This document shows positions 22,735-34,778 of a stretch of DNA of 40,772 nt, piece by piece. The stretch is from positions 1 to 40,772 of the IMG/VR virus record IMGVR_UViG_3300028456_000002; one strand, written 5' to 3'. The DNA is from a virus. Lineage: Duplodnaviria; Heunggongvirae; Uroviricota; Caudoviricetes. A program made the position numbers and the translations under genes. The notes under the pieces were generated by a model that saw nothing but the letters and a program-made list of their open reading frames with translations, did no database searches and had not been told where the DNA came from. Every line of letters begins with the position of its first letter. The stretch's first letter is position 1.

Positions 22735-22809
<75 letters not shown>

Positions 22810-22812
22810 ATA

Positions 22813-22888
<76 letters not shown>

Positions 22889-24653: not shown

Positions 24654-24682
24654 AATATATGCTTTTTAATCTACTTTTGCAA
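24654..24682 (-). promoter_or_regulatory. pR'-like late promoter overlapping the Q stop codon
   Basis: Minus strand TTGCAA, 17 nt spacer, TATATT; a short transcript would end at the terminator at 24577..24600, the lambda pR'-qut-tR' layout. Confidence 0.55.
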
Positions 24683-25361
24683 TACTTTGCTTTGAAAATG
24701 CCGCCTTTTGTTCCGAACGCGTTCTCATTACCAACAATAAAGCCTCACTATCCAGCTGATGGAAAATGTGTTTCATTGCAACCCAGTGACCAGTAAATGT
24801 TTTGGACCAGTTTTTAGTTGTCACTCCCGCCAGTAATGCCAGATCCTGGTATTCATAACCTTCCCCGCCAAAAAGTTCTGCTTTTACTGCCTGCGCCGCC
24901 AGCCAGATTAATTTTTTCAGGCGTTCCCGTGTTTTCTCTGCAATTTTCCTGTTGCCAGAATGAGCCTTAAACTCTTCCCATGCCCAGCGGGTTATGGTGA
25001 CCTGATACTCCCAGCAAATATTTCCGCTGTAACACCACAACAACCAGGTTTTATGAGGTTCTTCAAGAGACAGAACAGCCCGTCGCCATGAGGATGTCGA
25101 AAACTCAACCTGACTTACCAGAGGAATTGACGTCCCCTTCGCCAGCGATTGTTTCCCCGGGATTGGTGGATTATCCCGCGTGATAATTTTTCCAGTCGCT
25201 TCATCGCGGTACCGGATTTTTTTACGCCTGTAACGCCCTGTATCGAACATGGCATTCTCCTGCCAGGCTTCAAGCTGACCTTTTGTTGCCCCACTCAAAT
25301 CGGCGGTGGCGATAATGAGCTGCTCACGAACAAACTGTAAATACTGGTTATTCATGCGCAC
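24666..25361 (-). CDS. Late gene antiterminator Q-like protein
   Basis: 231 aa ORF directly upstream of the pR'/tR'-like elements and downstream of rusA; assignment is positional, family not verified. Confidence 0.6.
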   Translation of the reverse strand: MRMNNQYLQFVREQLIIATADLSGATKGQLEAWQENAMFDTGRYRRKKIRYRDEATGKIITRDNPPIPGKQSLAKGTSIPLVSQVEFSTSSWRRAVLSLEEPHKTWLLWCYSGNICWEYQVTITRWAWEEFKAHSGNRKIAEKTRERLKKLIWLAAQAVKAELFGGEGYEYQDLALLAGVTTKNWSKTFTGHWVAMKHIFHQLDSEALLLVMRTRSEQKAAFSKQSIAKVD

Positions 25362-27122: not shown

Positions 27123-27383
27123 TTATTCTTCTGCAAAAGCAGAAAATCCAGCCTTAAGACCAATCTCTTTCAGAACCTGTAATGATGTTACAAATTCATC
27201 TTCACGCAAAATAAAACCGTCCGTCATAAGCTCATCAACAAAATAAATTAACACAGCTCCGCTCTTCCTTTGTTGAGATTGCAAACATTTAATTCGGCAG
27301 TGACTGGCTATAACTCCATTCTCAACGCGTACAGCATAGAGGCCATTTTCACTAAAAATTTCACAAAATTCTTCTATTTTCAT
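27123..27383 (-). CDS. Hypothetical acidic 86-aa protein in an AT-rich island (cargo candidate)
   Basis: MKIEEFCEIFSENGLYAVRVENGVIASHCRIK...; visibly AT-rich relative to flanks; AAGGA ribosome-binding site; own candidate promoter at 27466..27493. Confidence 0.55.
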   Translation of the reverse strand: MKIEEFCEIFSENGLYAVRVENGVIASHCRIKCLQSQQRKSGAVLIYFVDELMTDGFILREDEFVTSLQVLKEIGLKAGFSAFAEE

Positions 27384-27465
27384 CTTCAGAATCCTTCCAG
27401 ATAAATAGCTCTCCCCTTCTCAGGGTCCATCCCTCTTGTCCCTGCGCGCTACTCAAAACAGGAGG

Positions 27466-27493
27466 ATTCTAATTAATCTTTATTTCTAAGCAA
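27466..27493 (-). promoter_or_regulatory. Candidate sigma70 promoter of the AT-rich 86-aa ORF
   Basis: Minus strand TTGCTT, 16 nt spacer, TAGAAT; T-tracts and the 9-bp repeat array lie immediately upstream. Confidence 0.4.
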
Positions 27494-27530
27494 CGCAAAA
27501 AACAAACCAAAAAAAAGACAAAACCACAAA

Positions 27531-27590
27531 CAATACAAACAATACAAACAATACAAACAATACAAACAATACAAACAATACAAACAATAC
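27531..27590. repeat. Tandem repeat, 9-bp unit CAATACAAA, 6 perfect copies plus a partial seventh
   Basis: Read directly: caatacaaa repeated head-to-tail from 27531 to 27584, then caatacagg; intergenic. Confidence 0.9.
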
Positions 27591-27667
27591 AGGCGCATCG
27601 ATAATTAATTAACTTATCGGGCTACAAGGTAATATAACTTCAGTTAAAATTATTAATCTCTTATTCG

Positions 27668-27693
27668 TGAAAAACAAAACCCGCCGAAGCGGG
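27668..27693 (-). terminator. Rho-independent terminator of the hok transcript
   Basis: Minus strand CCCGC-TTCG-GCGGG followed by TTTTGTTTTT. Confidence 0.6.
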
Positions 27694-27763
27694 TTAAGTG
27701 CGGGTGCTTTGAGGATGCCTGACACATCAGAGGTGGCGAGGGATTTCTCCCTCGCCTGGTCTC

Positions 27764-27919
27764 TTACTCCTCAGATTCGTAAGCTGTGAAGACAGCGACC
27801 TCCGTCTGGCCGGTTCGGATTCGTACCTCGCAGAGGTCTTTCCTCGTTACCAGTGCCGTCACTATGACGGTTAAACAGATGACGATCAGGGCGATTAACA
27901 TCGCCTTTTGCTGCTTCAT
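27764..27919 (-). CDS. hok: Hok/Gef family type I toxin (HokD-like), inside an N-terminally extended mok frame 27764..27976
   Basis: MKQQKAMLIALIVICLTVIVTALVTRKDLCEVRIRTGQTEVAVFTAYESEE, 51 aa, single TM helix, near-identical to chromosomal Hok proteins; the 70-aa in-frame upstream extension corresponds to mok. Confidence 0.85.
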   Translation of the reverse strand: MKQQKAMLIALIVICLTVIVTALVTRKDLCEVRIRTGQTEVAVFTAYESEE

Positions 27920-28199
27920 AGCCTGCTTCTCCTTGCCTTTCGGCATGTAAGAGGCTAACCTACATGTGCAAAGCATGAAATTGGCCTCAGATTAATGTTA
28001 AGCGTCTTGCCGGACGCGTAATGTTAACTGGGGCTTTTCTCTATCTGCCGTTGGTGTTCATGCCTGAGACAGATAGCCTCAAGCACCCGCAGCAATTCTA
28101 CTTAACTATCCTTTTCCCGCAAATCGTTTTTATCCCCAGCGGCAAATCGAATACACCACCAGCGCCACTGCCATCGCGATTCCTACTGTTGTGAATGCC

Positions 28200-28757
28200 T
28201 CAGGCCAGGTCATCGCCTATCAACCCGTTCCGCTCCAGATAGCCCATCGCCTTATCCGGCAATTTACAGTCCGGCTTCACTTTCTTCAGTTGACTGACCA
28301 ATTGCTTAACCAGCATGGTTAATTCGTCAGTCTGTTTGCCTGGTACTGGTGGATTGTCGGTTGTACCATGACTGGCAGTACAGTTGGCACTTCCTCCCTT
28401 CTCCTCCCGCAGCGGTTCAGGCAACGCATCCAGTGAAGCTTTCACAAACCACGCTGCCTGTACTATAACGCCATGAATCCAGCGCAAATCAGCATCGCGA
28501 TCGTTCTTTTTCATCTTTTCACCACTTAAAGCCTGGCTTATGTGGCTGCGAACCAGGTCTTCATGTAACTCCTTCGCATCCTCAATGGTGAAACCACCAG
28601 GCAGGCGAGCCGGAGTTACCGGAGAGTTGCCAGCCTTACGCATGGCCATTTCCACGATTTCAACCATATCTCCTGGTGGAATTTTACAAAGTTGCCCAAT
28701 ACATTTCTGCTGCCTTGCATATTCGAGAATGTGTTCCAGTTTGGTTCGATTAATCAT
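28200..28757 (-). CDS. Hypothetical protein, 185 aa
   Basis: ORF translationally coupled to the upstream gene (shared boundary at 28757); no recognised motif. Confidence 0.5.
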   Translation of the reverse strand: MINRTKLEHILEYARQQKCIGQLCKIPPGDMVEIVEMAMRKAGNSPVTPARLPGGFTIEDAKELHEDLVRSHISQALSGEKMKKNDRDADLRWIHGVIVQAAWFVKASLDALPEPLREEKGGSANCTASHGTTDNPPVPGKQTDELTMLVKQLVSQLKKVKPDCKLPDKAMGYLERNGLIGDDLA

Positions 28758-33559: not shown

Positions 33560-34082
33560 ACGAACCCCTGGCAGACATTTGTTTATCTGCAAAGTAATAT
33601 TGATATTGCTGACGATACGCATGCTTGAAAGCAATAGCTTTTTCTATAAGCTCGTCAGTCTCACGTTCCACAACAGATGGATCCGCAAAAAGCAGCCCAG
33701 ACTCCACCACATCGCCATATTCTTTGTTTAATCCGGCGATCATGTACGTAATGCTTTTTCCATCACTGATCTCACGATACAACCTGAAATCACTAATTCG
33801 GATAGCCTCCATAATTGCCGGAATCAGCGCCGTGAATTTTTTCCGCTTATCCCTGGTGTCGATAGCTTTCCAGCGTTCGAATATCTTCACCCGGTTAACG
33901 CCCAGCGCCCGTTGATCAACCTCGCCATCATTAAACGTGACGCGTTGAACATCGATGTTCGGGCGTTCTTTCAGAGCCCAGAATGCTTCCGTGATTAATA
34001 TCGTCGCCTGCTCCTGTGTCATTCCTGGTCGGCACACCCAGGCATCCAGAGCCTCACAAACCTGTTCAGGGGTGATTTTCAT
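33531..34082 (-). CDS. YdaT-like protein (cII-position gene)
   Basis: 183 aa immediately downstream of the Cro-like gene; resemblance to Rac YdaT is from memory only. Confidence 0.5.
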   Translation of the reverse strand: MKITPEQVCEALDAWVCRPGMTQEQATILITEAFWALKERPNIDVQRVTFNDGEVDQRALGVNRVKIFERWKAIDTRDKRKKFTALIPAIMEAIRISDFRLYREISDGKSITYMIAGLNKEYGDVVESGLLFADPSVVERETDELIEKAIAFKHAYRQQYQYYFADKQMSARGSYEYRCTTMG

Positions 34083-34293
34083 TGTTCAACCGCCCCGCCC
34101 GCTTTGCCTTACGATATTCGTCATAAACTTTGGGGTCGTACTGAAGTTCCCCGCCGGATGCCTCTTGCAGGCGCATCGCGCGACCTTCAGGAACCAATTC
34201 CCCCCATTGAGAAACAGCAGATGGATCAACACCAGCAGCTTTCGCTACTTTGGCTTTCGTCCCATAAAAATTAATTACGTCTGATTTAAACAT
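34066..34293 (-). CDS. dicC: DicC-like Cro-type regulator
   Basis: ORF 34066..34320; ...LVPEGRAMRLQEASGGELQYDPKVYDEYRK.KRAGRLNNENH matches DicC from memory; divergent from dicA. Confidence 0.8.
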   Translation of the reverse strand: MFKSDVINFYGTKAKVAKAAGVDPSAVSQWGELVPEGRAMRLQEASGGELQYDPKVYDEYRKAKRAGRLNNENHP

Positions 34294-34370: not shown

Positions 34371-34778
34371 ATGAACGAGAAAACTTTAGGTCAACGAATT
34401 AGAGAAAGACGCAAACAGGTTGGTTTAAGTCAAAACGATTTAAGCAAAGCTGCTGGCGTATCTGGCTCATCAATTTCACTATGGGAAAGCGACCATACAG
34501 CCCCGCGCGGGCAAAATTTGCATCGCCTGGCTGAGGTATTGCAATGTTCACCAACTTGGATACTGTTTGGTGACGAGGATAAAACACCAGATCCACCAGT
34601 TGCACTCAACAGCGCCTTAGACTTATCGGAAGATGAGTTGGAGATGTTGCGATTGTATCGCGCACTTCCAAAATCAGAGCAGCAAGCACAAATCAGCGAA
34701 CTCCGTGCCCGCGTTGAGAATTTTAATCGCCTATTCACCGAGCTACTAGAAGCTCGCAAACGTAACAAACATCAATAA
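34371..34778 (+). CDS. dicA: DicA-like repressor (HTH, XRE family)
   Basis: 135 aa; ...NLHRLAEVLQCSPTWILFGDEDK... and ...ELRARVENFNRLFTELLEARKRNK closely match DicA from memory. Confidence 0.9.
   Translation: MNEKTLGQRIRERRKQVGLSQNDLSKAAGVSGSSISLWESDHTAPRGQNLHRLAEVLQCSPTWILFGDEDKTPDPPVALNSALDLSEDELEMLRLYRALPKSEQQAQISELRARVENFNRLFTELLEARKRNKHQ

Follow-up and report, generated by a model that had tools for sequence, protein, structure and literature searches.

Is the hok-like locus of viral record IMGVR_UViG_3300028456_000002 (positions 1 to 40,772, the whole of which is called the window here) a complete type I toxin-antitoxin system with its own antisense RNA, and does its lack of the relBE neighbours found in Escherichia coli K-12 set it apart from known loci? 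A first-pass annotation made from the sequence had described a hok/mok locus at 27668..28100, with a 51-amino-acid (aa) Hok toxin nested in an in-frame 70-aa Mok and followed by an intrinsic terminator, and these features are all found as described. We think it likely that a hok/mok/sok type I toxin-antitoxin cassette of the hokD/hokW subfamily, complete and probably functional, lies here in the nin region of a Qin-like lambdoid prophage. The cassette is a self-contained module of ~430–470 bp that runs from its own promoter to its own terminator, and the evidence for it consists of its open reading frames (ORFs) and the families that they match, RNA elements that pair and covary, its homology with annotated Sok genes, and its genomic surroundings. 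The locus is confirmed as real, correctly identified and ordinary, since it belongs to an already known subtype.

The cassette: reading frames, hok mRNA and Sok

The elements of the cassette are as follows, in the order of the hok mRNA and then of the opposite strand:

28117..28122, minus strand: predicted hok/mok promoter −35 hexamer TTGCGG, from sequence inspection, 16 nucleotides (nt) upstream of the −10 box
28095..28100, minus strand: predicted hok/mok promoter −10 hexamer TAGAAT, whose end lies 6 nt ahead of the predicted mRNA 5′ end at 28088
27670..28088, minus strand: predicted full-length hok (mok-hok) mRNA, ~419 nt, with its 5′ end placed by Rfam position 1 and a 45-member alignment and its 3′ end by the terminator
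28077..28088, minus strand: tac (translational activator) GGGUGCUUGAGG, which pairs with fbi in the minimum free energy (MFE) fold
28030..28036, minus strand: ucb, or anti-Shine-Dalgarno, AAGCCCC, whose predicted partner is the mok Shine-Dalgarno (SD) when the mRNA is closed and tac when it is open
27985..27988, minus strand: mok SD GAGG, 8 nt ahead of the mok ATG
27764..27976, minus strand: mok, 70 codons, in the same frame and with the same stop codon as hok
27929..27934, minus strand: hok SD AAGGAG, from sequence inspection, near-invariant across 45 loci
27764..27919, minus strand: hok toxin gene, 51 aa, the final 51 codons of mok
27778..27781, minus strand: TACG motif (Tyr47 codon TAC plus G), a candidate TadA A-to-I editing site (Tyr to Cys) in a UUACGAA context
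27735..27756, minus strand: 3′ untranslated region (UTR) hairpin GGCGAGGGA-GAAA-UCCCUCGCC, from the fold, its helix 97.1% paired and 4 of its 9 pairs changing on both sides
27702..27714, minus strand: fbi (fold-back inhibitory) CCUCAAAGCACCC, complementary to tac with one bulged A
27670..27695, minus strand: intrinsic terminator AACCCGC-UUCG-GCGGGUU plus UUGUUUUU (site 27695..27678, then TTGTTTTT), kept in most hokD-type loci
27933..27961, plus strand: predicted Sok promoter, with −35 TTGCCT at 27933..27938, a 17-nt spacer and −10 TAACCT at 27956..27961
27968..28042, plus strand: predicted Sok RNA, ~71–75 nt, with coordinates carried over from annotated sokW (71 nt) and sokC

The 70-aa product matches the Pfam family HOK_GEF (PF01848) over profile positions 1–42 of 42 with an E-value of 2.7e-23 and 81.7 bits (the cut-off is 22 bits) and PHROG 251, 'MokW-like host killing', at 1.5e-32, which points to a hydrophobic Hok/Gef toxin of about 50 aa. 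At least 1000 contigs carry the exact Hok sequence under the name 'type I toxin-antitoxin system toxin HokD', and it differs by one aa from K-12 HokD (P49S) and by three, all C-terminal, from HokW. The mok frame has an SD of its own, GAGG, the counterpart of the GAGG that serves mok in plasmid R1 (PMC9841398), and it overlaps hok up to their shared stop codon. Such an in-frame mok is the family norm, as in mokW of phage 933W, mokC of K-12 and the R1-type plasmid locus; the idea that it is unusual, as it would be if R1 mok were out of frame, was dropped because the R1-type plasmid locus is in frame as well. The hok frame also carries the motif of the TadA-edited hok genes described by Bar-Yaacov et al. 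(2017), in which the Tyr codon TAC, within TACG, is the partner of a hard-coded Cys: Cys30 is hard-coded in the window Hok, and the TAC-G is near-invariant in the 45 aligned loci, three of which have a hard-coded TGC (Cys) instead. TadA editing at this Tyr codon site has been reported for K-12 hokC, hokD and hokE (PMC5630033).

Is the leader upstream of these frames whole? The first-pass annotation had named a covariance search as a check and a truncated leader as an outcome that would tell against it. Rfam family RF01794 matches 28088..27914 (minus strand) from end to end, over model positions 1–157 of 157, with 112.1 bits and an E-value of 7e-25 (the gathering score is 59 bits), which shows that the conserved hok mRNA leader is intact and not truncated; the match alone is silent on the direction of Sok. 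RF01794 is named 'sok antitoxin' but is modelled in the sense of the hok mRNA, from the tac 5′ end to the hok AUG, so the strand that it reports is the one opposite the Sok gene and can mislead automatic annotation. The leader of the window copy is 169 nt long, ~20–25 nt longer than the ~144–150 nt of short-leader members such as those of hokC type; the extra length comes from an extended Sok-region hairpin. A 16-nt insertion in the Rfam alignment was considered as a peculiarity of the window copy and rejected, since about half of the 45 loci share it and it is thus a subfamily trait. At the borders of the transcript, the hok −10 box is kept as TAGAAT or TAAAAT in most hokD/W-type loci seen, and the −35 box is poorly conserved, with homology between loci often beginning between the two. 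A terminator scan of 27400..28400 found one site against 1.2 expected, which is not above chance; the position of that site, 27695..27670 (minus strand), is conserved in homologues. The interval first given, 27668..28100, brackets the predicted transcript almost exactly, from the −10 box (28100..28095) and 5′ end (28088) to the terminator end (27670).

Folding of the hok mRNA ends, another check that had been proposed, brings them together: the MFE of the 417-nt RNA 28088..27672 is −173.3 kcal/mol (z = −8.28 against 100 dinucleotide shuffles), and the structure is closed by a tac-fbi helix of 12 bp with one bulge. In this full-length fold ucb closes a long hairpin against the mok GAGG, so that the mok SD would be sequestered at the hairpin base. 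Conservation was judged on 45 aligned, non-redundant loci of the family (E. coli hokD/W and hokC types, Kluyvera, Citrobacter, Pseudocitrobacter, Photorhabdus, Pantoea and Erwinia). When the window fold is projected on these loci, 87.6% of cells are standard pairs, compared with 36–44% when the partners are slid by 1–3 columns, and 53 pairs change on both sides; none of 500 shuffles reaches the observed values. Over the 45 loci the tac-fbi helix is 90.5% paired, and in 10 a U-A pair has become C-G, a compensatory change; these models together argue for a long-range fold-back between the 5′ and 3′ ends. By analogy with R1 (PMC9841398), the 3′-UTR hairpin is probably the protective 3′ stem-loop of the processed mRNA.

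In the R1 model, 3′ processing takes the hok mRNA from a closed to an open form (PMC9841398). A forced tac/ucb stem costs +12.4 kcal/mol in the full-length RNA of the window and +1.2 to +3.0 kcal/mol when the RNA is cut at nt 350–372 and thus has no fbi; these energies are compatible with such a switch and are not proof of it, and both the masking of the mok SD by ucb and the alternative tac/ucb stem after 3′ truncation are features of the in silico folds. Nascent 5′ fragments are predicted to fold a hairpin, GUGCUUGAGGC/GUCUCAGGCAU, that is the counterpart of the R1 'metastable' structure.

The Sok gene had been expected on the plus strand within 27977..28100. The strand stands, since an antisense Sok is predicted there, and the interval does not: the predicted Sok runs from 27968 to 28038, or to 28042 when the whole U-tract is counted, and its promoter at 27933..27961 lies outside the interval, within mok and adjoining the hok SD. 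Both promoter hexamers recur unchanged in the annotated sokW of 933W, whose spacer shows one difference, and the layout is that of the R1-type TTGCGC-17-TATCCT. The predicted Sok RNA folds into a free 5′ tail, a long hairpin (27983..28035) and the tract UUUUCUCU, with an MFE of −32.7 kcal/mol (z = −5.5), and it is perfectly complementary to mRNA nt 51–121, which include ucb, the mok SD and the mok AUG. Its hairpin is ~20 nt longer than that of hokC or R1, a trait of the hokD/W subfamily that is present in about half of the aligned loci. By homology and modelled structure, then, the cassette would encode a cis-acting antisense Sok. Mutation of the sokW −10 region abolishes antitoxin activity (PMC8621323). 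For R1 it has been shown that Sok is unstable, that the hok mRNA is stable and 3′-processed, and that their duplex is cut by RNase III (PMC9841398); the same behaviour has been shown in part for hokW-sokW (PMC8621323).

K-12 hokD and other relatives

How does the cassette differ from the hokD (relF) of K-12? The K-12 Qin gene order is ydfT(Q)-ydfU-rem-hokD-relE-relB, so the first-pass annotation was right that hokD adjoins relE-relB there, and right too that relBE is absent from the window and that unrelated genes occupy the place: a tblastn search of the window gave no match to RelE or RelB, the idea of a relBE scar likewise found no support there, and the upstream neighbours of the cassette are phage ORFs of unknown function. 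On sequence, the window locus is not a K-12-type relB-relE-hokD operon. The two loci are 97.7% identical in nucleotide sequence from the hok SD through fbi, which is kept even in K-12, and the terminator, and the homology stops 14 nt ahead of the hokD ATG, at relE. Beyond that point K-12 has relE-relB in place of the hok promoter, tac, ucb, the mok start, the Sok gene and the Sok promoter, all of which the window has; in the K-12 relBEF operon the relE stop lies ~70 nt upstream of hokD, which has no leader of its own, whereas the window has the 169-nt canonical leader there.

Because the window leader is homologous to the leaders of all other family members, the intact state is ancestral, and by sequence comparison the K-12 relE-hokD junction is a derived, truncated form in which relBE replaced the leader. 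An Escherichia ruysiae locus has rem and ydfU 96–99% identical to those of K-12, yet relBE is absent from it and its leader is full. Of 5426 complete E. coli genomes, 4214 contain an intact leader (at least 80% of the window's 186-nt leader) and 1165 a K-12-type relE-hokD junction, so the absence of relBE is the usual condition and not peculiar to the window; places that match the leader over any length have a median of two per complete E. coli genome. The contrast with K-12 is thus a known peculiarity of K-12 and not a novelty of the window.

Over its whole transcript the window cassette is 92–96% identical in nucleotide sequence to annotated hokD and hokW loci, and identity to E. coli loci is 95–98%, which makes Escherichia or Shigella the probable host; among GTDB species representatives no 100% match to the window Mok was found. 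Its experimentally studied relative is hokW-mokW-sokW of 933W and Sakai prophage Sp5 (AF125520; Takada et al. 2021, PMC8621323), which is 92.5% identical over 507 nt, from upstream of the promoter to fbi, and which like the window copy has a 51-aa Hok within a 70-aa in-frame Mok, a Sok of the 71-nt length class with an extended hairpin, and a lambdoid prophage as its carrier. The 933W copy lies ~3 kb from attR at the far right end of its prophage, whereas the window cassette is in the nin region between P and Q, and the 933W copy diverges right after fbi and is without the AACCCGC...GCGGGUU terminator of the window. The mechanistic paradigm, plasmid R1 hok/sok (parB), has the same order of parts (tac, ucb, mok SD, in-frame mok, hok, TACG Tyr codon, 3′ hairpin, fbi) and a similarly built Sok promoter, with a −35 box, a 17-nt spacer and a −10 box overlapping ...GTAAGAGGCTA... 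(PMC9841398); HokW, three aa from the window Hok, is only 44% identical to R1 Hok (PMC8621323). The window cassette, unlike that of R1, is chromosomal and prophage-borne, so the killing of plasmid-free cells (post-segregational killing) is not an obvious role for it. K-12 hokC/mokC/sokC (gef) shares an annotated in-frame mokC (69 aa), a sokC (59 nt) and an identical tac, and differs in having ~76% nucleotide identity to the window, a short Sok hairpin and a different −10 region; IS186 adjoins the 3′ end of that copy. E. coli-type hokD loci with 91–98% identity were also seen in records labelled Actinobacillus phage vB_Apl-pPE4 (PP818812.1), a Veillonella parvula metagenome-assembled genome, Xanthomonas pisi and Acinetobacter idrijaensis, which likely reflects contamination, mis-binning or mis-assigned hosts.

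The prophage around the cassette

The window contains the lambdoid prophage genes for an integrase (39477..), an exonuclease, a DicA-like repressor, a YdaT-like protein and O/DnaT-like and P replication proteins, together with nin-region ORFs, hok, rem, DUF968, RusA, Q (24666..25361), a DNA methylase, two tRNAs and a holin, and what these make up looks like a largely complete relative of cryptic Qin. The cassette lies between replication gene P and antiterminator gene Q and is read in the direction of the early-right operon. In 80 viral and 61 genomic loci, the stretch homologous to the window as a rule begins at 28137..28096 and stops at ~27670; since these limits correspond to promoter and terminator, the mobile unit is the cassette itself, as expected for a moron. 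Features around it are as follows:

28130..28174, minus strand: 14-codon ORF MAVALVVYSICRWG, with AGGA 6 nt upstream, between a 185-aa ORF and the hok promoter
27123..27383: Rem homologue, 86 aa, 36% GC, 69% aa identity to K-12 Rem over 86 aa
26778..27056, minus strand: 92-aa ORF (PHROG 1212), with a 76%-identical full-length counterpart in K-12 Qin
34371..34778, plus strand: DicA-like helix-turn-helix repressor

Downstream of hok the window and K-12 Qin have the same order of hok, rem, 92-aa ORF and DUF968/YdfU, the 352-aa DUF968 protein being 80% identical to YdfU, and the immunity region at 33803..34203 is 88.8% identical over 401 nt to K-12 Qin ydfX/dicC. The K-12 counterpart of the 92-aa ORF, between rem and ydfU (NC_000913 ~1644309..1644584), is unannotated. 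This synteny disposes of the proposal that an AT-rich ORF had been inserted on the rem side of hok: that ORF is the Rem homologue, and the extra DNA, which lies between the hok terminator and the Rem homologue, is AT-rich, non-coding and ~165–190 bp long (within the spacer 27384..27669), the hok-rem spacer being 380 bp in the window versus 216 bp in K-12. The extra DNA includes a perfect 9-bp tandem repeat, ACAAACAAT x 7.3, at 27526..27591; among 147 sequences (146 fetched loci plus the window) this repeat is otherwise present only in ETEC1738, in 11 copies, so its copy number varies. ORFs of 41 and 33 aa at 27473..27598 were rejected as genes, as they are reading-frame artefacts of the repeat.

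On the other side of the cassette, the 14-codon ORF is open in 15 related loci, with differences that are mostly synonymous (GCA/GCG, CTG/TTG, GTG/GTT, TGC/TGT, CGC/CGA), and may be an unannotated small hydrophobic protein. Farther away, two adjacent tRNA genes at 22738..22888 (minus strand; 65.6 and 63.6 bits) are placed downstream of Q and the methylase gene and upstream of that for the holin, where tRNA genes are usual in Stx-like and lambdoid late regions.

Proposed function and alternatives

If the mechanism established for plasmid R1 (PMC9841398) and for hokW-sokW of 933W/Sp5 can be transferred to the window, the cassette would work as follows: the weak hok promoter would give a stable full-length mRNA, in which tac-fbi pairing and ucb lying over the mok SD would prevent both translation and Sok binding. 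Slow 3′ trimming would take off fbi and let tac pair with ucb, opening the mok ribosome-binding site, and hok translation would be coupled to that of mok. Sok, made from its own promoter on the opposite strand, would bind nt 51–121 of the processed mRNA and so block mok and hence hok, with RNase III destroying the duplex. Should Sok synthesis end, through loss of the element or through prophage induction as for sokW, the stable mRNA pool would be translated and the 51-aa Hok would enter the inner membrane and kill or lyse the cell; its toxicity may be tuned by TadA, which would edit the Tyr47 TAC to a Cys codon. For hokW-sokW the following has been shown: HokW is toxic and localised to the inner membrane, sokW is protective and its protection is lost when the sokW promoter is mutated, the system depends in part on RNase III and Hfq, sokW vanishes after RecA-dependent prophage induction, and phage release is about two-fold lower when hokW-sokW is deleted (all PMC8621323). 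The K-12 HokD coding sequence, one aa different from that of the window, is toxic when overexpressed, and prophages show an enrichment of hok genes (bioRxiv 10.1101/2025.08.07.668861).

Several points weigh against reading the locus as a functional system. A simple sigma-70 consensus scan called neither the hok nor the Sok promoter, and both the Sok −10 TAACCT and the hok −35 TTGCGG match the consensus at 3 of 6 positions; we nonetheless retain both promoters, as predictions by homology, because they align hexamer by hexamer with the annotated and experimentally mutated sokW and have the R1-type layout. The structure projected on the 45 loci was derived from the window's own sequence, which inflates the proportion of cells paired relative to the slid controls, and the unconstrained MFE of the 3′-truncated mRNA favours the 5′ 'metastable' hairpin over tac/ucb by 1–3 kcal/mol. 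Transcription of the window copy and toxicity of its product, like its transcription start sites, 3′ processing, Sok expression and biological role, are carried over from relatives, and native chromosomal hokA, hokB and hokC do not cause post-segregational killing, as summarised in bioRxiv 10.1101/2025.08.07.668861, so an intact sequence is no proof of activity.

Could the cassette then be intact but physiologically silent, a 'fossil' whose transcripts never yield Hok in amounts that count, the conclusion drawn for native hokA, hokB and hokC? That summary also reports no activation of the native-form chromosomal loci by rifampicin, the K-12 hok loci have been noted as inactive (PMC1635323), and both window promoters are weak by consensus. 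All regulatory elements of the window copy are, however, intact and under covariation-type constraint, its ORF is identical to the widely conserved HokD, and its close relative hokW-sokW is active from a single copy in its prophage (PMC8621323). Moreover, the inactivations known from K-12 are lesions of structure, the relBE truncation of hokD being one, and the window has none of that kind; we consider silence unlikely.

It is somewhat more doubtful still that the main role of the cassette is defence by abortive infection, in which a lytic phage would shut off host transcription, unstable Sok would be depleted and Hok would kill the cell before the invader matures. The family falls in the PHROGs category 'moron, auxiliary metabolic gene and host takeover', and R1 hok/sok on a high-copy plasmid lowered T4 plating by 42% and plaque size by ~85%, according to work cited in PMC8621323. 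Against such a role, hok is not enriched beside known defence systems (bioRxiv 10.1101/2025.08.07.668861), and the single study on a prophage copy, that of hokW-sokW, showed it to aid release of the resident phage and reported no defence (PMC8621323). General scans of the neighbours in the window turned up no defence genes (PADLOC was not run), so that the window evidence is neutral either way. That the ORF and RNA matches are coincidental or are degenerate remnants, with no hok/sok system present, has nothing in its favour beyond the negative consensus promoter scans, and is refuted by the full-length covariance match (E = 7e-25), the Pfam match (E = 2.7e-23), the 92–96% identity to annotated hokD/hokW over the whole transcript and the conserved long-range pairing, and we give it practically no credence.

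What does the cassette mean for the biology of its family? With a functional hok/mok/sok cassette as the preferred reading, its weight as a discovery is small, since thousands of E. coli genomes have cassettes of the same subtype annotated as hokD, 933W has one annotated as hokW/mokW/sokW, and a copy at 92.5% nucleotide identity has already been characterised experimentally. It does correct a perspective: the textbook K-12 hokD (relF) is truncated and derived, and window-like loci show the Qin cassette as it was before relBE took the place of the leader. The window copy could serve as a clean natural template for hok/sok of the nin region in an apparently complete Qin-like prophage. Since the cassette lies in that region and is co-directional with the early-right (PR) operon, sense transcription set free when PR is de-repressed at induction might run head-on through the promoter of Sok and shut Sok off by transcriptional interference; the cassette might then have a built-in sense of induction and contribute Hok as an early lysis accessory that does not depend on the holin. 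We regard this idea, taken jointly with the separate one that the 14-codon ORF is a small membrane protein of the upstream gene module, as a speculative and rather improbable pair. If true, the induction-sensor idea would tell which step of induction removes Sok, a point that the work on hokW-sokW did not settle.

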